A stretch of 64,000 nt of DNA from the NCBI RefSeq assembly GCF_053078305.1, contig NZ_CP166879.1; one strand, given 5' to 3'. Below the pieces are notes generated by a model. That model searched no databases, had not been told where the DNA came from, and worked only from the letters and a program-made list of their open reading frames with translations. This document shows positions 44,242-61,670 of this stretch, in pieces (the first letter of the stretch is position 1; the number at the start of each line of letters is the position of its first letter). The position numbers were made by a program, and so were the translations under genes.

Positions 44242-46137
<1,896 letters not shown>

Positions 46138-46166
46138 TAATCCTCCCGCCAGAAGAATAAAACATA

Positions 46167-46198
46167 GCCCGGTATACAAGTGTATACCGGGCTTTTTT
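46167..46198. terminator. Bidirectional hairpin terminator between parE and receptor gene
   Basis: GCCCGGTATACAAGTGTATACCGGGC followed by TTTTTT. Confidence 0.75.
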
Positions 46199-46200
46199 GA

Positions 46201-48342
46201 TCAAAATTCCATTTTCACCGTGAATTGCACTTCACGCGGATCGCCAATCTGATTCCCCAGATTATTTGTGGCGATGGAAGAGGTGTAATACGTTTTATCA
46301 AACAGGTTTTTGACGTTTAATTGCAGTGTGACCGGATACTGCAATTTCATTTTGTATGCGGCGAAGGCATCGGCAACGAAATAGCCTGGCAGATAATAGT
46401 CAGCCCCATTGGTTGCCGAACGACGGCTTACGCCATGTCCACCACCGCCAAACGTCAGTGTGTTATTGCCAGGCATGTTATGAATGTCATAGGTCAGGAA
46501 TAGCGAACCGGTATGACGAGGAACATTCGGCAATGGTTTCCCTGCATAATCAGGATCTTCCAGAACCTTAGCATCGGTATAGCCGTAGCTGGCAATGATA
46601 TTAATGTTTTCAGTTAATGCTCCCGCAAGGTCGACTTCTACCCCTCTTGAACGAACGCGGCCTGCCGTTTTGGCGATGGTTTCATCACCAATACTTTCGG
46701 TATACAACACGTTACGTTTATGGATATCAAACAGCGCAATATCTGCGGTTATACCATCGAACAGCTCGAATTTTGCCCCGACTTCGTAAGCATTAGATGA
46801 TTCCGGTGGAAGATCTCCGATGTAGCTGGCAATTGACGATTGCGGCATAAATGTTTGCGAATAATTAGCAAATAAGGATACCGATGGCGTCAGTTTGTAG
46901 ACTAACCCCAGTTTGGGCGTCCATTGTTCATCGCGGCTGTCAGTATTGACATTAAAAGGACGGCCTTTACCCGCATACTGCGTGTAATACTGATAGCGGA
47001 TCCCGGCGACGGCAATCCAGTTATCGGTCAGATAGAGCGCATCCTGTGCATAAGCTGAGTAGCTCTCCTGTTTGATCGTCTGATCACTGTCCGACGCCGA
47101 AACCGTTGTGCATTTGCTGGTATTGCCATAAACGGGGTTGTAGATATTGAAATCTTTAGCGTTTTTACAGCGAATCATATCTGTGCGCAGAAGATCATAA
47201 TATTCATATGACACCCCACCCAGAATCTCATTATAGAACCCAGCAATATCAACATTCCCTTGCAGATCCGCACGAGTAGAATGCATACGCTGGGTAGATC
47301 CCTGAGTTGCATCAACACGCCGTGTCAGCGTTCCTGTCGTTGCATCATACGCGGTAACGCGAGCCTGATTGTCGCTGTATTTATCCTGGCTGTAGCTGTA
47401 ATCAAAGCGCGCTGTCCACTGGCTATTGAGATGATATTCTGCGTTGAGTTGCGCCAGATCGGACTGACCATCTGTAATATTAAACGGTTCGTCAAAACGT
47501 ATTTTTCGATCAACGTTTACGGGCTGTTTCGTCGTAAGGTCGAAAATCGTTCCACGATCGAACGGAGTTTTATAGTCCCGATGGGAATAGAGCATGGTTA
47601 CTGTTGCATTATCACCAAACCAGGTGAGTGACGGGGCAATAAATGTACTGCGCTCTTTACCGAAGTTTCGCCAGTAATCTTCATCCTGCACTTCCCCCGT
47701 CAGGCGGTATGCCAGCTGAGTGCCTTCAATGGGACCTGTGATATCAAGTTGCCCAGTGCCTCCGCCAAAACTGGAGGACGTGGCTGAGACAGAACCATGG
47801 AATGTTTTTTCCGGGCGCTTGGTCACGACGTTAATCAATCCACCAGGATCGAGAATGCCATACAGCGTGGAGGCCGGACCTTTTAGCACTTCCACACGTT
47901 CTGTGGCGGCGTTGAAACTGCGAGGAAGTACAGTTCGCAGGCCGTTGGTCATGATGGAGCCATCCCGGTTAGCACCAAACCCACGACGTACAAAGGCGTC
48001 CTGAGTTCCGCCTAATGTATTGGTCTGTACCACGTTACTGACGTTATAAAGCGCTTCATCCAGCGTCGTTGCATTCTGATTTTCCAGAACCTGATCGCTA
48101 ACCGTATTGACCACCTGCGGGATATCCAGCATCGGCATATCGGTTAATGTCGCCGTGGAAGTGCTCAGAGGTTGATAACCATCGGTCGCCTCAGTTGCGG
48201 TATTTGCATCCGCTGTAACAGTGATTGTTTCGCCATCTTTGGTCGTTGCAGTGTCGGTTGCATGAATCATTGGTGCTGCAAAGAGCAGTGAAAAGAGCGC
48301 CCGACCTTTGATTCCTGAGAATGAAGGTGTGAACTTAGCCAT
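46201..48342 (-). CDS. TonB-dependent outer-membrane siderophore receptor (Fit-like)
   Basis: 713-aa ORF; signal peptide, TonB box (ETITVTA), C-terminal ...FTVKMEF beta-barrel terminus. Confidence 0.85.
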   Translation of the reverse strand: MAKFTPSFSGIKGRALFSLLFAAPMIHATDTATTKDGETITVTADANTATEATDGYQPLSTSTATLTDMPMLDIPQVVNTVSDQVLENQNATTLDEALYNVSNVVQTNTLGGTQDAFVRRGFGANRDGSIMTNGLRTVLPRSFNAATERVEVLKGPASTLYGILDPGGLINVVTKRPEKTFHGSVSATSSSFGGGTGQLDITGPIEGTQLAYRLTGEVQDEDYWRNFGKERSTFIAPSLTWFGDNATVTMLYSHRDYKTPFDRGTIFDLTTKQPVNVDRKIRFDEPFNITDGQSDLAQLNAEYHLNSQWTARFDYSYSQDKYSDNQARVTAYDATTGTLTRRVDATQGSTQRMHSTRADLQGNVDIAGFYNEILGGVSYEYYDLLRTDMIRCKNAKDFNIYNPVYGNTSKCTTVSASDSDQTIKQESYSAYAQDALYLTDNWIAVAGIRYQYYTQYAGKGRPFNVNTDSRDEQWTPKLGLVYKLTPSVSLFANYSQTFMPQSSIASYIGDLPPESSNAYEVGAKFELFDGITADIALFDIHKRNVLYTESIGDETIAKTAGRVRSRGVEVDLAGALTENINIIASYGYTDAKVLEDPDYAGKPLPNVPRHTGSLFLTYDIHNMPGNNTLTFGGGGHGVSRRSATNGADYYLPGYFVADAFAAYKMKLQYPVTLQLNVKNLFDKTYYTSSIATNNLGNQIGDPREVQFTVKMEF

Positions 48343-48441
48343 TTAGTCTGTTATCCCAAAAACTCACGGATTGTCGTGAGTGAAAATTGTTTCTTGTTGC
48401 TCACTAAGCACTATCCGTTTGTTATTTCACCATCGGATATG

Positions 48442-48460
48442 TAATTGAGAATCATTCAAC
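48442..48460. promoter_or_regulatory. Fur-box-like site in divergent promoter region
   Basis: TAATTGAGAATCATTCAAC resembles Fur consensus (one or two mismatches in core). Confidence 0.4.
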
Positions 48461-48715
48461 CATGCGGTAATGTAGTAGTAAATGAGAAATAACAAAAAAT
48501 TGCTACATGTGTTTTTTTGAGAGGTTAATGCAATTCAATTGATGGTAATTTATTAATATTTAATGATTTTATTTTTATCTTTAAAAATATTTCACCTGTT
48601 ATTTACCTTGTTTTTGTATGGCTTTTAACTTCTTGACTACTACATTTTGTGGCGTCAAACTCTCAAAAGAGAATGAGTTTTATTTTTGTTTGTCTTTGAT
48701 TAAGTTGGCGTACAC

Positions 48716-49525
48716 GTGGCACATAACGCAAAAGGGCAGGGGCTGATCCTCGACAATGTTTCTGCCGGGTATCACAAGAAAATCATTGTTGATGGTGTTT
48801 CTTTCTCCGTTCCCACAGAAAAAATGACCGTTCTGGTTGGGGCAAACGGCTGTGGAAAGTCGACGTTGCTCAGCACCATTGCACGTATCTTGCAACCCAT
48901 GGGCGGCTCAATATTGCTGGATGGTAAAGCGATTCACGAGCAACCAACGAAAGCGTTATCCCGTAGACTTGGGATCTTGCCGCAGTCGCCATTATTGCCG
49001 GAGGGCTTAACCGTTTATGAACTGGTGTCGCGTGGGCGTTTTCCCTGGCAAAATTTCATACGTCAATGGAGCGACGCCGACGAGCAGGCGGTAGAAGAGG
49101 CCCTGAAATTAACCGGTACGCAGGAGTTTGCTCATTTACCTGTTGAAAAACTCTCTGGTGGGCAGCGCCAGCGTTGCTGGATTGCGATGGTGTTGGCGCA
49201 AAAGACGCCTTATATCCTACTGGATGAACCCACAACCTGGCTTGATTTACGTTATCAGGTTGAAATTCTTGAGTTATTACATGATTTAACGCGTCATCAC
49301 GGGCGTACAGTCGTCGTGGTGTTGCATGATCTGAATTTTGCCGTCAATTATGGTGATACGTTGATATTTTTACGCCAGGGGAAAGTGGTGCGTGTGTTGA
49401 ATGAGGGGGAGCATTGCACGCCTGAGCTGGTAAAAGCTGTCTTTGACGTTGATGTTCACGCATCAATAAATACTCTGACGGGAAAGCCGTTCTTCATGCC
49501 GTTTCGTGGTGTAGAAAAAGTATGA
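48716..49525 (+). CDS. ABC transporter ATP-binding protein (iron-siderophore type)
   Basis: 269-aa ORF; Walker A GANGCGKST, signature LSGGQRQR, Walker B ILLDEP. Confidence 0.85.
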   Translation: MAHNAKGQGLILDNVSAGYHKKIIVDGVSFSVPTEKMTVLVGANGCGKSTLLSTIARILQPMGGSILLDGKAIHEQPTKALSRRLGILPQSPLLPEGLTVYELVSRGRFPWQNFIRQWSDADEQAVEEALKLTGTQEFAHLPVEKLSGGQRQRCWIAMVLAQKTPYILLDEPTTWLDLRYQVEILELLHDLTRHHGRTVVVVLHDLNFAVNYGDTLIFLRQGKVVRVLNEGEHCTPELVKAVFDVDVHASINTLTGKPFFMPFRGVEKV

Positions 49526-50505
49526 TGCGCACAGGGCTGGTTACTGTAATTTTCCTCACCTTACTGCTGGTGGGATGCGTGGTATATCCAGGGATTGGTG
49601 CCCGATTTATTGCACCACAAACGGTGTTGCAGGCATTTCTTCATTTTGATCCGCAAAACTTCGATCACAGCGTAATTGTAAGACTCCGTTTGCCGCGTTT
49701 AGCGGCAGCATTGCTTACCGGTGCTTCTCTTGGTGTTGCCGGTGCTTTGTTGCAGGCTGTCATTCGTAACCCATTGGGGGAGCCACATATTTTAGGCTTA
49801 AATGCCGGAGCCGCTCTTGCTGTCGTTGCCGCCAGTGCGCTTGGACTGGCCTTTCCGGCTGGACGCCCACTGCTGGCATCTACGGGGGGCGCGTTATTGT
49901 TCCTGTTGATATTGCTGCTTTCCTCCGCAGGGCGTTCAGGGTTAACGCCAATGAAAGTTACTTTATGCGGCGTGGCGCTATCGGCGTTCGTGTCCTCAAT
50001 AACGGCTGCAATCCTGATTCTTGACGAACAAACACTGCTGGCGATGCGGACATGGCTAGCAGGTGATTTAGCGGGGCAGGATTGGGTGACGCTGGGTACG
50101 TCCGTCTGGTTTTCTCTGGGGGGATTTGTGTTAGCCATTTACCTTGCGCCCTCTCTTAACATGTTGGCACTGGGTGATCGCATGGCGCAGGGGCTGGGCG
50201 TCTCGGTACTCCGCACGCGAACATTCACCCTGCTTGCGATCGCGTTGCTCTGTGGCGCAGCCGTATCGATTGCTGGCCCCATTGGTTTTGTCGGCCTGCT
50301 AGTACCGCAGATTGTCCGGCGTCTGGTATCAGCGGATCTGCGCGTTCTGCTCCCTCTTTCAGCTTGTGTCGGCGCGCTTTTGTTATTACTGGCAGATATT
50401 ATTGCTCGGACGCTCTTCACGCCCCATGAGTTAGCGACCGGTGTCATGACGGCGTTAGTTGGTGCGCCTGTTTTTGTCATTATGGCGACGAGGATGTTCA
50501 AATGA
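49522..50505 (+). CDS. ABC permease (FecCD family)
   Basis: 327-aa polytopic membrane protein, overlapping stop/start with flanking genes. Confidence 0.8.
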   Translation: MMRTGLVTVIFLTLLLVGCVVYPGIGARFIAPQTVLQAFLHFDPQNFDHSVIVRLRLPRLAAALLTGASLGVAGALLQAVIRNPLGEPHILGLNAGAALAVVAASALGLAFPAGRPLLASTGGALLFLLILLLSSAGRSGLTPMKVTLCGVALSAFVSSITAAILILDEQTLLAMRTWLAGDLAGQDWVTLGTSVWFSLGGFVLAIYLAPSLNMLALGDRMAQGLGVSVLRTRTFTLLAIALLCGAAVSIAGPIGFVGLLVPQIVRRLVSADLRVLLPLSACVGALLLLLADIIARTLFTPHELATGVMTALVGAPVFVIMATRMFK

Positions 50506-51551
50506 GTCGGATAATGAACGTCGGGCTACGCCCACTACGTGTTGGTAAGTTTTCGACACTGGTACGCCCTAAAAATCTGGTGTTGCTTGGTGGGCTGTTT
50601 CTGTTTGCGGTTGGAATACTGATATTCGGTCTGATGCATGGTTCTTTTTCTGTCCCGGCATCGGAAGTAGGACGAGCGTTGTTTGCTCCAGAAAACGTAA
50701 GCACAGACGCACGTTATATTGTGCAGGATATTCGCTTGCCGAGAGTCATCATGGCATTGCTATGCGGAGCCATGTTAGGTATGGCGGGGGCCGCGATGCA
50801 ATCCATTGCGCGTAACGGCCTTGCCGATCCTGGTTTAATCGGCGTCAAAGAAGGATGTAGCGTGGCGGTGCTGTGGCTGATTTTCCAGTTTCCAATGCTG
50901 GGAATGTTCTGGCGTCCAGTGGCTGGTCTTGCTGGTGGCTTGTTGGTGGCTTTAATCGTGATTTTTTGTGCACGCGATATTTCCCGCCCGCGATTTGTTC
51001 TGATTGGTATTGGTGTTTCCTGGTTTTTCGCCGCCGGTATCGGTGTATTTATGACCACTGCAGATGTTCGAGATGTACAAACTGCATTGATGTGGTTATC
51101 GGGAAGCCTGCATGCAGCTAACTGGATGTTAGTCGGTATTTCAGCCTGTTGGATGTTGCCAGCCACTCTTTTATTGCTGTTCACCGCCAGGACGGCGGAT
51201 ATCGCTCTGCTTGGTCATCAGGTTGCAACCGGGTTAGGGGTGAATAGTTCTCGTCTGGCGTTGTTACGTGTCGCCGCACCAATAATCCTGACAGCCGTCT
51301 GCGTTTCGTGTGTTGGTAACATCGGTTTTGTCGGATTGATAGCACCCCATATATCACGTTTTATTCTACGTGGCGGGCAGACGACATTACTGCTGGGGAG
51401 CGCCGTATCGGGGGCGTTGTTAGTCATCCTGGCGGATAGCATTGGTCGTTTGGCTTTTTTGCCTTTGCAACTGCCTGCCGGAATCATTATTTCATTGATT
51501 GGTGGACCATTCTTTTTGCTACTGCTCTGGCAGTGCAGGAACAGTTTTTAA
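50502..51551 (+). CDS. ABC permease (FecCD family), second subunit
   Basis: 349-aa polytopic membrane protein. Confidence 0.8.
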   Translation: MSRIMNVGLRPLRVGKFSTLVRPKNLVLLGGLFLFAVGILIFGLMHGSFSVPASEVGRALFAPENVSTDARYIVQDIRLPRVIMALLCGAMLGMAGAAMQSIARNGLADPGLIGVKEGCSVAVLWLIFQFPMLGMFWRPVAGLAGGLLVALIVIFCARDISRPRFVLIGIGVSWFFAAGIGVFMTTADVRDVQTALMWLSGSLHAANWMLVGISACWMLPATLLLLFTARTADIALLGHQVATGLGVNSSRLALLRVAAPIILTAVCVSCVGNIGFVGLIAPHISRFILRGGQTTLLLGSAVSGALLVILADSIGRLAFLPLQLPAGIIISLIGGPFFLLLLWQCRNSF

Positions 51552-51561
51552 TGGGAGTTAT

Positions 51562-52509
51562 ATGCGTTTATTTTTTTCTCTGCTGATACTGTTGTCATTC
51601 TTTGCCCGCGCGACAGAACCTGTTCAGGTCTTTACTGATGATTTAGGGCGCAAAGTCACTGTTCCTGCTCATCCAAAGAGAATTGTCTCTTTACACGATC
51701 TTGATATCACTATTCCTCTGATTGAGCTCGGTGTACCTCCTGTCGCCAGCCACGGGCGAACTCGGCCTGACGGTAGCCATTTCATTCGATCAGGCGCGTT
51801 ATTGACAGGTGTCGACTTTGATAATTCATCGATCGCTTTTATTGGCACCGCTGATATTGATATTGAAGCGATTGTGGCGGCAAAGCCTGACCTGATTATC
51901 ACAGAACCGACCCGTAATACGCCCATTGAACAACTGGAAAAAATTGCGCCCACGGTGAGCATTGATCATCTCAAAGGAGGCGCGCCAGAAATCTACCGCA
52001 AGCTGGCAGAACTGACAGGAACGCAGTCGCAGCTGGCGATACTTGAACGCCGCTATCAGGCACAAATCAATGCGCTGAAGGCGACGCTGGACAGCCAAAA
52101 AATAACGGTATCGGTGATTCAGGCAAATCAGGGAAAAATTAATGTGATGCATAGCTATCATTCGCTGGGGCGGGTATTACGCGATGCTGGTTTTCGCTTT
52201 CCGCCGCTGATTGAGAGCATTCCTGAAGGTGGGCGAATGGATGTGAGCGCGGAGCGTTTACCTGAACTGGATGCCGATTTTGTTTTTGCAACCTGGCGCG
52301 GTGACACCGGTGGTAAACCTCAGGATGAGCTGGCAGCAATGGAAAAAGTCATGCCGGGATGGTGTCAGTTTCTGACTGCCTGTCGTTCCGGGCGTTATGT
52401 GCTGATTTCTCGTGAAGAGGCAATTTCTAACTCCTTTGCATCTCTGGGGCTGATGGCTGCGCAGATACAATCACAAATTGCGGGGCGACCTTTACCGGAG
52501 GCCAAATGA
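51562..52509 (+). CDS. Periplasmic iron-siderophore binding protein (start trimmed to MRLFFSLLIL signal peptide)
   Basis: 315 aa from ATG with SD GGGAG; FecB/FhuD-like binding protein. Confidence 0.75.
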   Translation: MRLFFSLLILLSFFARATEPVQVFTDDLGRKVTVPAHPKRIVSLHDLDITIPLIELGVPPVASHGRTRPDGSHFIRSGALLTGVDFDNSSIAFIGTADIDIEAIVAAKPDLIITEPTRNTPIEQLEKIAPTVSIDHLKGGAPEIYRKLAELTGTQSQLAILERRYQAQINALKATLDSQKITVSVIQANQGKINVMHSYHSLGRVLRDAGFRFPPLIESIPEGGRMDVSAERLPELDADFVFATWRGDTGGKPQDELAAMEKVMPGWCQFLTACRSGRYVLISREEAISNSFASLGLMAAQIQSQIAGRPLPEAK

Positions 52510-53393
52510 TTCAGAAAGACAAAACGCGGGTTGATATTTATGGTGAGCGTTTTCGCACTCGCGCGAGTCAGTTAACGCCTGGGTTAAGAGCTGTCGCCAG
52601 CTATATTAATGAGCATCGTGAAGTGGTACTCGAGCAAACGGCGATGGAAATTGCGGCCACGTTGAACACTTCCGATGCCACAGTTATCAGGGCTATACAG
52701 GCCCTGGGGTTTGCCGGGCTGCGTGATCTGAAACGCACTCTGGAACAGTGGCTTGGTCCAGCCCTTAGTTCCAGCGAAAAGATGTCTACGACGGTGAGTA
52801 ACTTGACGAGCGATGTTAACACCGCAATCGACTTTGTTCTTGAAGGGCATTTGTATACCTGTAATGTCCTGTCAGAGCCTGAAAACCGCCACGCGCTTGC
52901 GCAAGCGGTAGCGTTGTTGGTACAGGCACGGCAAGTCGCAATTTTTGGCATTGGCGCTTCGGGTATTCTGGCGGACTATACCGCACGACTATTCAACCGC
53001 ATAGGTTTGCCAGCCACGGCACTAAACCGTACGGGTATTGGCCTTGCCGAGCAACTGATCGCGCTTCAACGTGGCGATGTTCTGATCATGATGGCGCAAA
53101 AATCTGCGCACCGGGAAGGGCTGACAACGCTGCGTGAAGCGAGACGGCTGGGGATCCCTGTTATTTTGCTGACAAACGCGCTGGATTCACGTTTTAGCAA
53201 AGACGCCAGTATCGTGATTCATGTTCCGCGCGGGGATGAAAAGGGGAAAACGCCACTACATGGTACGGTATTGTTGTGCCTGGAAATGATTGTCTGGTCG
53301 GTGGCTTCCGCGGTGCCGCAGCGTGCGGTTAAAACCATTAAGCGAATTAACGATTTCCATCGGGGGCTGAAAACGGGAAGAAAGAATGGCTAA
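52506..53393 (+). CDS. RpiR/MurR-family transcriptional regulator (HTH + SIS domain)
   Basis: 295-aa ORF; N-terminal HTH and central SIS fold. Confidence 0.75.
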   Translation: MIQKDKTRVDIYGERFRTRASQLTPGLRAVASYINEHREVVLEQTAMEIAATLNTSDATVIRAIQALGFAGLRDLKRTLEQWLGPALSSSEKMSTTVSNLTSDVNTAIDFVLEGHLYTCNVLSEPENRHALAQAVALLVQARQVAIFGIGASGILADYTARLFNRIGLPATALNRTGIGLAEQLIALQRGDVLIMMAQKSAHREGLTTLREARRLGIPVILLTNALDSRFSKDASIVIHVPRGDEKGKTPLHGTVLLCLEMIVWSVASAVPQRAVKTIKRINDFHRGLKTGRKNG

Positions 53394-53437
53394 TCTGACC
53401 TGAGGCCGGTAGCAACACCGGCCTCTTTTCAGGAATG

Positions 53438-53752
53438 TTAAATCCCCGGTTGCAGAATACGGATATTCATCTCCAGCACGTCGCCTTTTACGGCTTCGCT
53501 GTACGCCTTCATGTGCGGGGTTTGCAGATGCGCTTCAAGGTGCGCGATGCTTTCCCACTGCTCAATCATCACGATAGAGTCCGGTGCCATAGACTGGAAA
53601 CTCACGCCAGCAGCGCAATCCACCATTGGCGCATAGCCGTGGCAACCTTCTTCTTTCAGTACGGTTGGAACGATTTTAGCAAACTGATCCAATACCGCCT
53701 GACGGTGATGTTGACCAGGACGAGTACGGATTTCTGCGATTACGGTAAGCAT
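53438..53752 (-). CDS. ygiN: Quinol monooxygenase YgiN
   Basis: 104-aa ORF, ABM-domain protein. Confidence 0.9.
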   Translation of the reverse strand: MLTVIAEIRTRPGQHHRQAVLDQFAKIVPTVLKEEGCHGYAPMVDCAAGVSFQSMAPDSIVMIEQWESIAHLEAHLQTPHMKAYSEAVKGDVLEMNIRILQPGI

Positions 53753-53782: not shown

Positions 53783-54364
53783 TTAACCAAAAATTTCCAC
53801 AAGATGCTTGCGATATTCTTCAGTATAGCGGGGAACATCAGGCATTTTTATCACGTCATTAGCGATAAATGTCGGCAGCGGTTCCATGCCAAGGAATTGG
53901 TTTGCTTTATGGAACGGCAGATACACACCGTCGACGCCAACGCCGTGGAAGAATTGATCTTTTTCGGTGAAGGCTTCCATTGGTGCGTTCCAGGTCAGAG
54001 AAAGCATATATTTTTTGCCCTGTACCAGGCCGCCGGAACCGTATTTTTTCGACGGATCTTTGCGGGTACGACCATCGCTGGCATACAGCGTCCCGTGACC
54101 TTCGGTGAATACATCATCAATGTATTTTTTCACTGTCCACGGCGCGCCCATCCACCAGCCTGGCATCTGCCAGATCACCACATCAGCCCAGAGAAAGTTT
54201 TGTACTTCCGCTTTGACATCGTAGTCGCTGTCGGCGCGAACGATGCGAACATCATGCCCGAGGTCGCGCAGTGTGCCATCCGCGACTTCGGTCAGGGTGT
54301 CGTTCAGTTGACCATTGGAGTGGGCGAATTTTTTCGCGCCGTTGATAATCAGGATGTTGCTCAT
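53783..54364 (-). CDS. mdaB: NADPH:quinone oxidoreductase MdaB
   Basis: 193-aa flavodoxin-like ORF. Confidence 0.9.
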   Translation of the reverse strand: MSNILIINGAKKFAHSNGQLNDTLTEVADGTLRDLGHDVRIVRADSDYDVKAEVQNFLWADVVIWQMPGWWMGAPWTVKKYIDDVFTEGHGTLYASDGRTRKDPSKKYGSGGLVQGKKYMLSLTWNAPMEAFTEKDQFFHGVGVDGVYLPFHKANQFLGMEPLPTFIANDVIKMPDVPRYTEEYRKHLVEIFG

Positions 54365-54473
54365 TTTTTAACCTCAAGGTGAGACGTTTGCCGACTATAG
54401 TACGTCACAGAGCGGTACGGTGAAATTAGCAAAATGTGCAAAGTCTTTTGCGAATTTAGCAAAAGTCTTACCC

Positions 54474-55823
54474 TTACCAGCTTACCTTCGCCTCAAATCC
54501 ACCTTGTTCCGCATTCCCAAACTCAACATTCATGCCATGCAGCTTGGCGATTCGCTGGACAATCGATAGCCCAAGTCCACTGCCGGTAGCGGTTTGTCCG
54601 GGTGGGCGATAGAAGCGTTCGCCAATTCGCGCTAGTGCCTCTGGCGTCACACCGGGGCCGTTATCCCTCACGATGAAATTATCGGCATTCAGCGTGACGT
54701 CTACCACGCTGCCCTGTGGACTGTAGCGCACGGCGTTATCCAGCAAATTTCGCACCAACAAACTTAGCAATAGCGGTTGCCCGGTGCGTTTGATGCTGTG
54801 GGCATTGAGTGTCAGTCGCACGTCAATTTTCGCCTGCTGCGCCGTGTGGTAAATATCCATCACCGACGATTGCAGGAGATCTTCAAGCGGGATCTCCGCG
54901 ACGTCCTGAAGGTTATCCAGTGAGTCCAGCCGCGATAGCGTGAGCAGTTGATCAACCAGACGAGTAGCGCGATCGATCCCGTAATGTAATTGAAGCAGTG
55001 CTTTTTTCCGCGCCTGCGGATCATCGTCAGAGAGCTGCGCAACTTCGGTTTGCACTTTCAGCGCCGTTAACGGGCTACGAAGTTCGTGAGCTGCGTCGGA
55101 GGTAAAGCGTCGTTCACGAACCATCATCGCATGTGTGCGGGCGAACAGTTGATTTAGCGACTCAACCAGTGGTCGCACTTCGCTGGGTACGCCAGTCGCG
55201 TTTAGTGGTTTTTCCGAGTCAGGGTCACGCATACGTAGTGCCAGCGCCAGTTTGTTCAGCGGCGCGAGTTCACGACCCAGTAGTACCATCATGATGATTA
55301 ACATAATCGGCAGTGCGACCAACCACGGGATCAATTGCCCGGCAACAATCGCCAGCGCCATGTCTTCACGGTATTCCCATTCCTGACCAACAACGATGCG
55401 ATATTTGCCATCAGGTGAGGTCATCCAGACAAAACGCCATTGATCTTTATCGCCCACCAGTTGCCCGTCAGCAAAACCTTCCCGTTGATAGCTATAGGGA
55501 ATATCTTCTCCGTTATCGCCATCGTTAAGGACCATTCTGCCGTCGTGGGTAAAGATGGCAAAGGTCAGCGCATCGTCATCAACATGACCGTGTTTTAATT
55601 TATTTGGCGTCTGTGCCATGCGATCCGCCGCGTTGATTTCGTTGAGATCGAGCGTACTTAACCGCTTGGCAAACAGCATCAGTTGGGTGTCGAACAACTC
55701 ATCGACGTTATCCGTTGTTTGTTTCCAGGCGACAAAGCTGGAAAGCAGCCAGGTCACCGAGGCCAGAATTAAAAAGATTAGCGTCAGCCTGACGCGCAGA
55801 CTAAGACGTTGGGTAAATTTCAT
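54474..55823 (-). CDS. qseC: Sensor histidine kinase QseC
   Basis: 449-aa ORF; two TM segments, HAMP, H-box ...HELRSPL, HATPase. Confidence 0.9.
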
Positions 55824-56479
55824 TTCTCACCTAATGTGTAGCCAATACCATGCACGGTACGAATAAAATCACTACCGAGTTTGCGTCGCAGATGATGCAC
55901 ATGCACTTCAACGGCATTACTGGTGACATCTTCGTCCCAGGTATACAGTTTCTCTTCAATCAGTTTGCGCGGCAGTACCCGACCAGCGTTACGCATCAGT
56001 AATTCCAGCAGGGCAAATTCTTTTGGTTTCAGCGTTAAGGGTTCGCCAGCCAGCGTGGCGATACGTTTGCCGGGGTCGAGCATGACGTTCCCGTGGCGCA
56101 GTTCGTTGCTGGCCTGGCCGTTGGTTCGGCGCATCAGTGCTTCCAGCCTGGCGGCGACTTCTATCAACGCAAAAGGTTTACACAGATAATCGTCAGCTCC
56201 CAGACGCAGCCCCTCTACACGTTCCGCCAGCGCATCGCGCGCGGTCAGGATCAGTACCGGCTCACGCTGACCTTTTTCTCGCCATTCGCGCAAAATATCG
56301 CGACCATCCATGCCTGGTAAGGTTAAATCCAGGATCACCGCATCATAAGGCGCGCTATAAAGCGCCTCTTTTCCCTGACGACCTTGTGTAAACCAGTCGA
56401 CGCTAAAACCCATTTTACTAAGGCCCGTTTTGATGCCGTCGCCAATCAGCATGTCATCTTCTATCAGTAAAATTCGCAT
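55820..56479 (-). CDS. qseB: Response regulator QseB (OmpR family)
   Basis: 219-aa ORF, receiver domain MRILLIEDD..., winged helix. Confidence 0.9.
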
Positions 56480-56630
56480 TTTTTCATCCCTGCGATAACC
56501 GTATTTGCTGCCAGTAAACCGTGTTGTAACGCGCTCTGTACAGCATTAAATTTTATTTTTTTCCCTTAAGAAGTTGTTAAGGACTATCTTGTTAAATGCT
56601 CGGAAACAGACATTAAAGGGAGTAACAAAC

Positions 56631-57023
56631 ATGAAAAAATTCGCAGCAGTAATCGCAGTAATGGCCCTGTGCAGTGCACCGGTGATGGCAGCAGAGCAGG
56701 GCGGTTTTTCTGGCCCATCGGCAACGCAAAGTCAGGCTGGAGGATTCCAGGGGCCGAACGGCAGCGTAACGACTGTAGAAAGCGCAAAATCCCTGCGTGA
56801 CGACACCTGGGTAACCCTGCGCGGCAATATCGTTGAACGCATCTCTGACGATCTCTACGTGTTCAAAGATGCCAGCGGTACTATCAATGTTGATATCGAT
56901 CACAAACGCTGGAACGGCGTGACGGTGACGCCGAAAGATACGGTTGAGATTCAGGGTGAAGTCGATAAAGACTGGAATTCTGTTGAAATTGACGTCAAAC
57001 AGATCCGCAAAGTAAATCCGTAA
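56631..57023 (+). CDS. ygiW: BOF/YgiW-family periplasmic OB-fold protein (start trimmed to MKKFAAV)
   Basis: 130 aa with signal peptide; SD AAAGGGAG. Confidence 0.85.
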   Translation: MKKFAAVIAVMALCSAPVMAAEQGGFSGPSATQSQAGGFQGPNGSVTTVESAKSLRDDTWVTLRGNIVERISDDLYVFKDASGTINVDIDHKRWNGVTVTPKDTVEIQGEVDKDWNSVEIDVKQIRKVNP

Positions 57024-57075
57024 TTGTTACCGCTCCCGGGATGCGTTCCCGGGAATAATTTCGCAGGGAGGCAAC

Positions 57076-57558
57076 ATGACAAACCTGACACTGGATGTAA
57101 ACATTATCGATTTCCCATCAATCCCTGTGGCGATGTTGCCGCACCGCTATAGCCCTGAGTTGCTCAACTACAGCGTGGCGAAATTTATCATGTGGCGTAA
57201 AGAGACGGGGCTTTCTCCTGTTAACCAAAGCCAGACTTTTGGCGTCGCCTGGGACGACCCTGCCACCACCGCACCGGAAGCGTTTCGCTTTGATATCTGC
57301 GGCAGCGTTAGCGAACCGATTCCCGATAATCGTTATGGTGTGAGCAATGGTGAACTTACCGGTGGACGTTATGCCGTGGCCCGCCACGTTGGCGAGCTGG
57401 ACGATATTTCACACACGATATGGGGCATTATTCGCCACTGGCTGCCTGCAAGCGGCGAGAAAATGCGTAAAGCACCGATTCTGTTTCACTACACCAATCT
57501 TGCCGAAGGGGTGACGGAGCAGCGACTGGAAACGGATGTTTATGTGCCGTTAGCGTGA
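57076..57558 (+). CDS. ygiV: GyrI-like/AraC effector-domain protein YgiV
   Basis: 160-aa ORF matching E. coli YgiV. Confidence 0.85.
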   Translation: MTNLTLDVNIIDFPSIPVAMLPHRYSPELLNYSVAKFIMWRKETGLSPVNQSQTFGVAWDDPATTAPEAFRFDICGSVSEPIPDNRYGVSNGELTGGRYAVARHVGELDDISHTIWGIIRHWLPASGEKMRKAPILFHYTNLAEGVTEQRLETDVYVPLA

Positions 57559-57666
57559 TGGGGAATCTTTACCGGAGTGTGAGCCAAATCACTCGCGATA
57601 AGTTTGAGCGAACAATGCCACAGGCGTATTGTTGTTGGGCTTATAATTTCTCCGGTAAGGAATACC

Positions 57667-59274
57667 ATGTATACGCGAAATTTATTATGGCTGGTCAGCC
57701 TGGTAAGTGCGGCTCCTCTCTACGCTGCTGACGTTCCCACCAACACACCGCTCGCTCCGCAACAAGTCTTTCGTTACAACAATCATAGCGACCCAGGTAC
57801 GCTCGACCCGCAAAAGGTGGAGGAGAATACTGCCGCGCAGATTGTGCTGGATCTGTTTGAAGGTCTGGTATGGATGGACGGTGAAGGCCAGGTGCAGCCC
57901 GCTCAGGCTGAACGCTGGGAGATAATGGACGGCGGCAGGCGCTATATTTTCCATCTGCGTAGCGGTTTGCAGTGGTCCGACGGTCAGCCTCTGACGGCAG
58001 AGGATTTTGTCCTCGGCTGGCAGCGCGCGGTTGACCCGAAAACGGCAAGCCCTTTTGCTGGCTATCTGGCACAGGCGCACATTAACAATGCCGCGGCTAT
58101 TGTTGCGGGTAAAGCAGATGTTACATCGCTGGGTGTCAAAGCGACGGATGATCGAACTCTTGAAGTTACGCTTGAGCAGCCGGTTCCTTGGTTCACGACG
58201 ATGCTCGCCTGGCCGACGCTCTTCCCGGTTCCTCATCATGTCATCGCTAAACATGGCGATAGCTGGAGTAAGCCAGAGAACATGGTTTACAACGGTGCCT
58301 TTGTGCTTGATCAGTGGGTAGTTAACGAAAAGATTACTGCACGCAAAAATCCAAAGTACCGCGATGCGCAACATACAGTATTGCAACAGGTTGAGTATCT
58401 GGCGCTGGATAATTCGGTCACCGGCTATAACCGCTATCGCGCGGGAGAGGTCGATCTCACCTGGGTTCCGGCGCAGCAAATTCCCGCCATTGAAAAATCA
58501 CTGCCTGGCGAGCTACGAATTATTCCGCGTCTGAACAGCGAATATTACAACTTCAACCTTGAGAAACCGCCATTTAACGATGTGCGAGTGCGTCGGGCGC
58601 TATATCTTACGGTTGATCGACAGCTTATTGCGCAAAAGGTACTGGGGTTGAGGACGCCCGCAACCACGCTGACGCCGCCAGAGGTAAAAGGCTTTAGCGC
58701 GACGACGTTCGATGAACTGCAAAAGCCAATGAGTGAGCGCGTCGCGATGGCAAAAGCCTTGCTGAAACAGGCGGGATACGACGCCTCTCATCCGCTACGC
58801 TTTGAGCTGTTCTACAACAAGTACGATCTGCATGAAAAGACCGCGATAGCGTTGTCTTCCGAATGGAAAAAATGGCTGGGTGCACAGGTGACGCTGCGCA
58901 CAATGGAGTGGAAAACCTATCTTGATGCCCGACGAGCCGGTGATTTCATGCTGTCTCGGCAGTCGTGGGATGCGACGTACAATGATGCTTCCAGCTTCCT
59001 GAACACGCTCAAAAGCGATAGTGAAGAAAACGTCGGTCACTGGAAAAATGCGCAGTATGACGCCTTACTAAACCAGGCCACGCAGATCACTGATGCGACA
59101 AAGCGTAATGCGTTGTATCAGCAGGCAGAAGTGATCATCAACCAACAGGCACCGCTGATTCCTATCTACTATCAGCCGTTAATCAAACTGCTTAAACCCT
59201 ACGTTGGCGGTTTTCCGCTGCATAATCCCCAGGATTATGTCTACAGCAAAGAGTTGTATATCAAGGCACATTGA
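57667..59274 (+). CDS. ygiS: Periplasmic oligopeptide-binding-like protein YgiS (start trimmed to MYTRNLLWL)
   Basis: 535 aa with signal peptide; ABC family-5 solute-binding fold. Confidence 0.85.
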   Translation: MYTRNLLWLVSLVSAAPLYAADVPTNTPLAPQQVFRYNNHSDPGTLDPQKVEENTAAQIVLDLFEGLVWMDGEGQVQPAQAERWEIMDGGRRYIFHLRSGLQWSDGQPLTAEDFVLGWQRAVDPKTASPFAGYLAQAHINNAAAIVAGKADVTSLGVKATDDRTLEVTLEQPVPWFTTMLAWPTLFPVPHHVIAKHGDSWSKPENMVYNGAFVLDQWVVNEKITARKNPKYRDAQHTVLQQVEYLALDNSVTGYNRYRAGEVDLTWVPAQQIPAIEKSLPGELRIIPRLNSEYYNFNLEKPPFNDVRVRRALYLTVDRQLIAQKVLGLRTPATTLTPPEVKGFSATTFDELQKPMSERVAMAKALLKQAGYDASHPLRFELFYNKYDLHEKTAIALSSEWKKWLGAQVTLRTMEWKTYLDARRAGDFMLSRQSWDATYNDASSFLNTLKSDSEENVGHWKNAQYDALLNQATQITDATKRNALYQQAEVIINQQAPLIPIYYQPLIKLLKPYVGGFPLHNPQDYVYSKELYIKAH

Positions 59275-59411: not shown

Positions 59412-61670
59412 ATGAGCGATATGGCAGAGCGCCTTGCGCTACATGAATTTACGGAAAACGCCTACTTAAACTACTCCATGTACGTGATCATGGACCGTGC
59501 GTTGCCGTTTATTGGTGATGGTCTGAAACCTGTTCAGCGCCGCATTGTGTATGCGATGTCTGAACTGGGCCTGAATGCCAGCGCCAAATTTAAAAAATCG
59601 GCCCGTACCGTCGGTGACGTACTGGGTAAATACCATCCGCACGGCGATAGCGCCTGTTATGAAGCGATGGTCCTGATGGCGCAGCCGTTCTCTTACCGTT
59701 ATCCGCTGGTTGATGGTCAGGGGAACTGGGGCGCGCCGGACGATCCGAAATCGTTCGCGGCAATGCGTTACACCGAATCCCGGTTGTCGAAATATTCCGA
59801 GCTGCTATTGAGCGAGTTGGGGCAGGGGACGGCTGACTGGGTGCCAAACTTCGACGGCACTTTGCAGGAGCCGAAAATGCTACCTGCCCGTCTGCCAAAC
59901 ATTTTGCTTAACGGCACCACCGGTATTGCCGTCGGCATGGCGACCGATATTCCACCGCATAACCTGCGTGAAGTGGCTCAGGCGGCAATCGCATTAATCG
60001 ACCAGCCGAAAACCACGCTCGATCAGCTGCTGGATATCGTGCAGGGGCCGGATTATCCGACTGAAGCGGAAATTATCACTTCGCGCGCCGAGATCCGTAA
60101 AATCTACGAGAACGGACGTGGTTCAGTGCGTATGCGCGCGGTGTGGAAGAAAGAAGATGGCGCGGTGGTTATCAGCGCATTGCCGCATCAGGTTTCAGGT
60201 GCGCGCGTACTGGAGCAAATTGCTGCGCAAATGCGCAACAAAAAGCTGCCGATGGTTGACGATCTGCGCGATGAATCTGACCACGAGAACCCGACCCGTC
60301 TGGTGATTGTGCCGCGTTCCAACCGCGTGGATATGGATCAGGTGATGAACCACCTCTTCGCTACCACCGATCTGGAAAAGAGCTATCGTATTAACCTTAA
60401 TATGATCGGTCTGGATGGTCGTCCGGCGGTGAAAAACCTGCTGGAAATCCTCTCCGAATGGCTGGTGTTCCGCCGCGATACTGTGCGCCGCCGACTGAAC
60501 TATCGTCTGGAGAAAGTCCTCAAGCGCCTGCATATCCTCGAAGGTTTGCTGGTGGCGTTTCTCAATATCGACGAAGTGATTGAGATCATTCGTAATGAAG
60601 ATGAACCGAAACCGGCGCTGATGTCGCGGTTTGGCCTTACGGAAACCCAGGCGGAAGCGATCCTCGAACTGAAACTGCGTCATCTTGCCAAACTGGAAGA
60701 GATGAAGATTCGCGGTGAGCAGAGTGAGCTGGAAAAAGAGCGCGACCAGTTGCAGGGCATTTTGGCTTCCGAGCGTAAAATGAATAACCTGCTGAAGAAA
60801 GAACTGCAGGCAGACGCGCAAGCCTACGGTGACGATCGTCGTTCGCCGTTGCAGGAACGCGAAGAAGCGAAAGCGATGAGCGAGCACGACATGCTGCCGT
60901 CTGAACCTGTCACCATTGTGCTGTCGCAGATGGGCTGGGTACGCAGCGCTAAAGGCCATGATATCGACGCGCCGGGCCTGAATTATAAAGCGGGTGATAG
61001 CTTCAAAGCGGCGGTGAAAGGTAAGAGCAACCAACCGGTAGTGTTTGTTGATTCCACCGGTCGTAGCTATGCCATCGACCCGATTACGCTGCCGTCGGCG
61101 CGTGGTCAGGGCGAACCGCTCACCGGCAAATTAACGTTGCCGCCTGGGGCGACCGTTGACCATATGCTGATGGAAAGCGACGATCAGAAACTGCTGATGG
61201 CTTCCGATGCGGGTTACGGTTTCGTCTGCACCTTTAACGATCTGGTGGCGCGTAACCGTGCAGGTAAGGCTTTGATCACCTTACCGGAAAATGCCCATGT
61301 TATGCCGCCGGTGGTGATTGAAGATGCTTCCGATATGCTGCTGGCAATCACTCAGGCAGGCCGTATGTTGATGTTCCCGGTAAGTGATCTGCCGCAGCTG
61401 TCGAAGGGCAAAGGCAACAAGATTATCAACATTCCATCGGCAGAAGCCGCGCGTGGCGAGGATGGTCTGGCGCAACTGTACGTTCTGCCGCCGCAAAGCA
61501 CGCTGACCATTCATGTTGGGAAACGCAAAATTAAACTGCGTCCGGAAGAGCTACAGAAAGTCACTGGCGAACGTGGACGCCGCGGTACGTTGATGCGCGG
61601 TTTGCAGCGTATCGATCGTGTTGAGATCGACTCTCCTCGCCGTGCCAGCAGCGGTGATAGCGAAGAGTAA
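59412..61670 (+). CDS. parC: DNA topoisomerase IV subunit A
   Basis: 752-aa ORF; GyrA-like with active-site Tyr region. Confidence 0.95.

Follow-up and report, generated by a model that had tools for sequence, protein, structure and literature searches.

The window analysed here is a 64,000-nucleotide stretch of contig NZ_CP166879.1 (assembly GCF_053078305.1) that includes the parE-parC region of an Escherichia coli (E. coli) chromosome. In the laboratory strain K-12 this region holds two small accessory loci, ygiZ, located between qseC and mdaB, and the toxin-antitoxin (TA) operon mqsRA, located between ygiV and ygiS. Both loci are missing from the window, and the most probable explanation, to which we assign a probability of about 0.9, is that the region contains two small indel polymorphisms, for both of which the window has the ancestral allele without insertion, K-12 being the strain that carries insertions. 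A preliminary description of this stretch had spoken of an absence of these genes, a word that implies loss; our results support a refined wording in which the state of the window is ancestral and widely shared. The assignment to E. coli is based on an 8-kb query around the locus, for which 5,425 of 5,426 complete genomes of this species have a match of 95-99% identity. These 5,426 genomes are the set used throughout. The result is a presence/absence observation, to which a chance model is not applicable.

The spacers in which the two loci would be expected are very short. The gaps of about 110 bp reported by the preliminary description measure 109 bp between mdaB and qseC (54365-54473) and 108 bp between ygiV and ygiS (57559-57666), and its coordinates for them were exact. 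The gene order that it gave for K-12 was also right, as the annotated genome NZ_CP047127 shows the orders mdaB-ygiZ-qseC and ygiV-mqsR-mqsA-ygiS. The junctions between the window and the K-12 locus (L001) were set by base-by-base extension of the identical flanks. At the first slot, a 592-bp K-12 segment containing ygiZ (L001 5032-5623) replaces the window pentanucleotide TACCC (54469-54473), which lies immediately 3' of the qseC stop codon; at the second slot, a 927-bp segment containing mqsRA (L001 8711-9637) replaces GGGAA (57561-57565), located 2 bp after the ygiV stop codon. In the comparison with MG1655, which had been proposed as a check, the distance between both junction probes is 4,726 bp in MG1655 records vs 3,217 bp in the window, and the difference of 1,509 bp corresponds to the net contribution of the two missing segments (587 + 922). 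Over the shared parts the window and K-12 are 98.9% identical. That the window belongs to a non-K-12 lineage without both loci is thus borne out by the lack of ygiZ and mqsRA at their K-12 positions, together with an additional 7.3-kb island described below.

No trace of the occupied alleles could be found in the 64 kb of the window. Searches for remnants of ygiZ, mqsR, mqsA, hcp and a gene for a 236-aa protein (the last two being companions of ygiZ in some strains) returned only chance-level matches (tblastn, E up to 10; blastn, word size 7). For instance, K-12 MqsR matches the MqsR_toxin family (PF15723) at E 5.5e-35, and an open reading frame (ORF) for a member of this family is absent from the window, in which tblastn produced only chance matches with E values of at least 0.8. 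MqsA, a protein with a zinc finger and a helix-turn-helix domain (PF15731), is likewise absent from the window (tblastn best E 1.3), and the ygiV-ygiS spacer is just 108 bp long. The mqsRA promoter, with its paired ACCTTTTAGGT palindromes, is absent as well, since blastn of the 927-bp insert (word size 7) gave nothing above chance. The YgiZ proteins of K-12 and UTI89 match DUF2645 (PF10840); an ORF of about 110 aa for this family is absent between mdaB and qseC, and the best tblastn match across the window has an E value of 0.72.

Both empty slots are common in the species. The 592-bp ygiZ segment is matched in 4,601 of the 5,426 genomes (85%), and the empty mdaB-qseC junction is found in 824 (15%), O157:H7 included. 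The 927-bp mqsRA segment is present in 2,299 genomes (42%), and the empty ygiV-ygiS junction, detected as a 125-bp probe matched in one piece, in 3,122; to be without mqsRA is therefore the majority state in E. coli (58%). These identical or near-identical empty junctions, found in 824 and 3,122 independently finished genomes and also in other species, make it hardly conceivable that the two intergenic regions of the window were collapsed by an assembly or sequence artefact, an explanation for which no support was found.

The counts are also complementary. Segment and empty junction together account for all 5,425 matching genomes at the ygiZ slot (4,601 + 824) and for 5,421 of 5,423 matching genomes at the mqsRA slot (2,299 + 3,122), which indicates that genomes with an empty slot do not carry ygiZ or mqsRA elsewhere. 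The preliminary description had allowed that the genes could be present at another place in the same genome. Such a relocation might be entertained because only 64 kb of the strain were inspected and because mqsRA-family pairs do occur on plasmids of other genera, but it is very improbable: the window holds no copy, and the number of split junctions equals, or nearly equals, the number of segment carriers across the genome set (4,601 vs 4,601 for ygiZ; 2,301 vs 2,299 for mqsRA). Moreover, mqsRA has no plasmid-labelled match among the E. coli genomes and the ygiZ segment has two, while a plasmid collection contains two E. coli mqsRA records, one of which, of 4.9 Mb, is probably a mislabelled chromosome.

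The combination of alleles at the two slots was determined in 60 genomes, sampled systematically at regular intervals along the match ranking. The K-12 type, with ygiZ and mqsRA, was the most frequent (23/60), followed by genomes with ygiZ only (14/60) and by those in which the first slot contains a longer cassette, which includes hcp, and the second one lacks mqsRA (11/60). Nine genomes, several of O157:H7 among them, were empty at both slots, and the remaining three contained mqsRA only, the hcp cassette plus mqsRA, and a locus disrupted by IS1, respectively. Since all slot combinations were seen in this sample, the two polymorphisms are largely independent. The haplotype of the window, with both slots empty, represents roughly 15% of finished genomes.

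The polarity of these polymorphisms was established with outgroups. A QseC scan of species-representative genomes provided 37 loci, which were mapped by tblastn; the sequence of the qseC-mdaB spacer was compared in the twelve loci that were printed, and the remaining loci were assessed by gene spacing. This spacer measures 109 bp in Escherichia albertii, Escherichia sp. MOD1-EC7003, Escherichia sp. E1V33, a further outgroup locus (L032) and most of the printed Citrobacter loci, 108 bp in Citrobacter sedlakii, and between 104 and 112 bp in the printed loci of Citrobacter, Kluyvera, Pluralibacter and Intestinirhabdus. The taxa compared have homologous pentanucleotides at the insertion point (TACCC, TACTC, TACCG, GACCG or AACCG), indicating that the TACCC of the window is an orthologous sequence rather than a deletion scar. 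Similarly, the ygiV-ygiS spacer is 108 bp long in UTI89, EC19, D8 and E. albertii and 110 bp in Escherichia whittamii and locus L032, and the second insertion point corresponds to a homologous G-rich sequence in the outgroups. Neither MqsR nor MqsA was detected by tblastn in any of the 37 outgroup loci. The first slot is occupied in E. whittamii, which carries ygiZ only, and in Citrobacter werkmanii, which carries the full cassette, with 62-75% protein identity.

The occupied alleles, for their part, bear hallmarks of foreign DNA, namely atypical GC content, low diversity of mqsRA, and relatives on mobile elements. Both K-12 inserts are AT-rich (34% GC in the ygiZ segment and 41% in the mqsRA segment, compared with 51-53% in the flanking genes). 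All 2,299 copies of mqsRA are chromosomal and at least 99% identical, so that the insert is far less diverse than the flanking 3.2 kb, which are 95-99% identical in most genomes; this difference fits a recent single acquisition. Pairs resembling mqsRA, with 66-73% DNA identity, are found on plasmids of Rahnella, Rouxiella and Pectobacterium, and shorter matches to annotated mqsA or mqsRA-family pairs on plasmids of Yersinia and other genera. A phage collection contained no mqsRA-like DNA. Taken together, outgroup spacers that are alike in length and sequence and inserts that are AT-rich and, in the case of mqsRA, of low diversity point to the empty allele as the ancestral one and to the K-12 allele as the derived one.

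The same evidence bears on secondary loss, that is, on whether the window lineage once possessed ygiZ and/or mqsRA and lost them, either through a deletion that removed them precisely or because recombination exchanged the locus for an empty allele of another lineage. This is improbable, although some observations are in its favour: the presence of all combinations of both polymorphisms in E. coli indicates that the region is shuffled by recombination, the ygiZ cassette may be old, since C. werkmanii and E. whittamii also have it at this slot, and IS1 has mediated disruptions or deletions of the ygiZ or mqsRA genes in some strains. However, the empty spacers of the window equal those of the outgroups in length, in sequence and in the 5 bp of the insertion points, features that a spontaneous deletion would not restore, and no remnant of either insert is left in the window. 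Replacement by another allele would produce an identical sequence, although an allele that was never interrupted is the more parsimonious explanation.

From the directly observed junctions, allele frequencies, outgroup states and base composition we infer the following history and mechanism. The ancestor of Escherichia would have had qseC followed by about 109 bp and mdaB, and ygiV followed by about 108 bp and ygiS. Two AT-rich foreign modules devoid of mobility genes would have later entered the extreme 3' ends of qseC and ygiV. The first would be an orphan type VI secretion system (T6SS) cassette, composed of hcp, a gene for a lysozyme-like effector and ygiZ, of which most E. coli strains, K-12 included, bear a form with ygiZ only; the second would be a self-contained mqsR-mqsA operon with its own operators and terminator. 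Vertical descent and homologous recombination via the conserved flanks may then have carried the inserted alleles into part of the species, and O157:H7 and the window lineage would either have never received the inserts or have re-acquired the empty allele by recombination.

Several points weigh against an ancestral, uninserted state of the window. The cassette at the same slot in C. werkmanii and ygiZ alone in E. whittamii could mean that this insertion is old and has been followed by many precise losses, or that it has been exchanged between genera through the flanks; in either case the insertion at the ygiZ slot is older or more promiscuous than that of mqsRA. For the window lineage, a slot that was never occupied would look the same as one that was occupied and then replaced by an empty allele. 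In addition, neither slot offers a recognisable mechanism of insertion, there being no integrase or repeat hallmark: the K-12 inserts have no target-site duplication, no terminal direct or inverted repeats and no mobility gene. The only structured elements associated with them are the known MqsA operator repeats and terminator-like hairpins within the inserts, besides an inverted repeat of the ygiS leader, which is common to both alleles. Finally, the view of the window genome is confined to 64 kb.

YgiZ has been described as a 110-aa inner-membrane protein of unknown function, the promoter of which is activated by BglJ-RcsB (PMC3950696). The other occupants of its slot suggest a role for it. 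In 1,262 genomes (23%), UTI89 and Nissle among them, the slot contains three co-directional genes: hcp, coding for a 159-aa protein (PF05638), a gene for the 236-aa protein, which belongs to no Pfam family, and ygiZ (DUF2645). Another 3,339 genomes (62%) have ygiZ without the other two genes, and the 824 genomes already mentioned have nothing; no part of the hcp cassette is present in the 64 kb of the window.

Comparison of the 236-aa family with Pfam and PDB by sequence gave no significant match, fold comparison alone being informative. Around 30 clusters of homologues of this protein exist in Enterobacterales, all of them unnamed, and an alignment of 25 members shows conservation of the motifs WIESGG, SFGSxxxQ and RYNRG, most of their positions being invariant. 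We take these motifs to resemble the ES / GLMQ / AYNxG signature of family-1 lytic transglycosylases. In the slot, the Hcp gene is followed by a gene for a putative effector with a predicted toxin fold. In turn, E. coli, C. werkmanii, Pectobacterium, Serratia and Chania have a DUF2645 gene of 110-112 aa directly after the effector gene, and the genomic surroundings differ among them. For instance, the trio is located between pagP and an eamA-family gene in Pectobacterium, adjoins a RepB-family gene in Serratia, on a 75.6-kb record that is probably a plasmid, and lies beside a transposase fragment in Chania. The fact that the trio keeps together in unrelated contexts suggests for ygiZ the role of an orphan T6SS immunity gene. 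Synteny and the predicted fold suggest, as the most economical interpretation, an orphan Hcp-effector-immunity module in which YgiZ would be the immunity protein and of which K-12 would keep the immunity gene only.

Extended to the whole species, this interpretation is tentative, and we consider its chances slightly short of even. A mobile T6SS module, consisting of Hcp, a lytic-transglycosylase-like effector and YgiZ as a membrane immunity protein, would have landed in the slot; about 23% of the strains (mainly of B2 type, such as UTI89 and Nissle) would be armed, the 62% that are in the situation of K-12 would keep ygiZ as an orphan immunity gene, and the 15% with an empty slot, to which the window and O157:H7 belong, would be both unarmed and unprotected. 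The synteny fits a role of YgiZ in immunity without proving it. It would be unusual for a muramidase-like effector to have an immunity protein embedded in the membrane. By hydropathy, YgiZ has two or more strongly hydrophobic segments (approximately residues 52-79 and 81-109), and as an inner-membrane protein it is unlike the known Tgi proteins, which are soluble and periplasmic. The Tge/Tgi pairs, the effectors of which are peptidoglycan glycoside hydrolases, and Tse3-Tsi3 (PDB 4luq) are known T6SS effector-immunity pairs, from which the cassette differs in that its 236-aa protein has no Pfam family. Literature searches on DUF2645, on hcp together with qseC and mdaB, and on three RefSeq protein accessions found no report of the cassette. 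The possibility that the Hcp of the slot is the published Hcp2B was rejected, because the latter belongs to an hcp2B-vgrG2-xmtU/xmtV operon (PMC5874247).

When the alleles with ygiZ only were compared with the full cassette as possible simple deletion products of it, they were seen to share its outer ends, and a segment of 131-180 bp takes the place of hcp and the effector gene (L001 5105-5235 in K-12; positions 176-355 of the slot in locus L004). This middle segment shows only marginal matches to the 3' ends of the effector and DUF2645 genes (E 0.001-0.07), and it may consist of decayed remnants.

If YgiZ does confer immunity to an Hcp-linked, muramidase-like effector, a role would be gained for a K-12 gene and a Pfam domain that are both of unknown function, and a three-state polymorphism (armed, immune only, and naive) would predict who kills whom among gut E. 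coli. The finding on the window itself matters little, as it amounts to a non-K-12 lineage with the ancestral qseBC neighbourhood. Its broader meaning is that K-12-centred gene maps include lineage-specific insertions, and the lack of mqsRA in 58% of finished genomes is relevant to claims that give MqsRA a general regulatory role in E. coli stress responses.

The uneven distribution of TA systems in E. coli has already been published, so the present finding is correct, ordinary and known in kind. According to the review by Fraikin et al. 2020, no TA system is common to MG1655, W, EDL933 and UTI89; this review cites Fiedoruk et al. 2015 for the uneven distribution of these systems across phylogroups, and Ramisetty & Santhosh 2016 for their horizontal transfer (PMC7167474). 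The adherent-invasive E. coli strain NRG857c is reported to lack mqsRA (PMC7232551). Like other published accessory TA systems, mqsRA is present in part of the species (42% of the complete genomes) and acts as a horizontally acquired islet; what is added here to the published presence/absence is the exact mqsRA junction, its polarity with respect to outgroups, and the complementarity of the counts.

The genes that flank both slots are complete in the window. Their coordinates come from the ORF listing, from tblastn mapping and from the annotated strain D8, whose genome is the closest one (99.4%). On the minus strand, ygiN (53438-53752; full length according to the three sources) is followed by mdaB (53783-54364), an intact gene for a 193-aa NADPH:quinone oxidoreductase that is 100% identical in protein sequence to K-12 MdaB and is annotated as mdaB both in the closest genome and in K-12. 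After the 109-bp spacer, which is identical in strain D8 and O157:H7, come qseC (54474-55823, minus strand; intact, 449 aa), coding for a sensor histidine kinase, and the intact response regulator gene qseB (55820-56479, minus strand). The plus strand carries ygiW (56631-57023), the product of which is an OB-fold stress protein 100% identical to K-12 YgiW by tblastn and annotated in D8, ygiV (57076-57558; intact, 160 aa), for a GyrI-like/AraC-family protein, ygiS (57667-59274; intact, 535 aa), for an ABC-type substrate-binding protein, and parC (59412-61670; full length). Nothing is missing functionally in the window. Both the flanking genes and the regions upstream of them are intact; relative to K-12, the strain is short of one TA pair and has no YgiZ.

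The mdaB-qseC spacer contains a conserved block, GGTGAAATTAGCAAAATGTGCAAAGTCTTTTGC (54419-54451, minus strand), located upstream of mdaB and kept in empty and occupied alleles; the ygiZ insertion of K-12 lies just upstream of the block and leaves it intact. Its core, GCAAAATGTGCAAAGTCTTTTGC, hardly changes between Escherichia, Kluyvera and Pluralibacter, in contrast to the rest of the spacer, which varies. Judging from this conservation, the block is probably the mdaB promoter or regulator-binding DNA; we presume a resemblance to a marbox-type activator site or to the promoter itself. A simple sigma-70 scan found no consensus promoter in either empty spacer, the block included, and a terminator scan of both spacers found a single weak terminator-like site (57615-57627), these scans being uninformative.

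Other structured sequences accompany the two slots. The end of the K-12 ygiZ insert forms a near-perfect 15-bp hairpin, TCTATGAGAGTCGTT / AACGGCTCTCATAGA (L001 5584-5615), which lies a short way downstream of qseC and ygiZ, two converging genes. Between qseC and mdaB, the empty allele is devoid of any terminator-like structure, and read-through from qseBC into mdaB-ygiN may therefore differ between alleles. The paired ACCTTTTAGGT operator palindromes are placed inside the mqsRA insert (L001 8834-8882). The ygiS leader of both alleles contains an inverted repeat, TCTTTACCGGAG (57566-57577) / CTCCGGTAAGGA (57650-57661), the left arm of which starts exactly at the mqsRA insertion point, and the right arm of which overlaps the ygiS Shine-Dalgarno region. 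This repeat may form a hairpin for translational control.

Regarding its relatives, the window resembles O157:H7 in having an empty mdaB-qseC junction that is 100% identical, an empty ygiV-ygiS junction that is 99.2% identical, and 99.0% identity over the 3.2 kb between them. The window is not O157:H7 itself. Its best matches, strains D8 and 2018-05-2CC, are only 99.3-99.4% identical; at this locus, 99.4% is the highest identity reached by any complete genome. Positions 1-25000 have a best match of 98.2% identity, and only five of the 5,426 complete genomes, from bovine isolates, cover at least 80% of them. This poor coverage and the identity of at most 98.2% indicate that the window strain has no close relative among finished genomes. 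The same 25 kb, from rpoD-dnaG to ttdT, hold an island with an integrase and with RepA-family helicase and primase-family genes.

The 7.3-kb insertion with respect to K-12 mentioned above is situated between parE and ygiN (46134-53437), where K-12 has 51 bp. It encodes a TonB-dependent siderophore receptor (46201-48342, minus strand), an ABC ATPase, two FecCD permeases and a substrate-binding protein, as well as a MurR/RpiR regulator (52506-53393). We take this iron-uptake island to be, probably, the fit system.

Further variation was observed around the two slots. In several E. coli genomes (H31, H61, H201, H216, H242 and H30), IS1 is inserted inside or next to mqsR or ygiZ, or is associated with deletions of the qseBC-ygiV block. 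In some other E. coli genomes (H24-H29, the class with 63% coverage), ygiS is missing from the match, and in two Escherichia loci from species other than E. coli (L005 7687-8268 and L034 7681-8272) this gene is largely deleted, with approximately 580 bp, including a 3' remnant, left between ygiV and parC. The ygiS deletion constitutes a third indel polymorphism within the same 8 kb.

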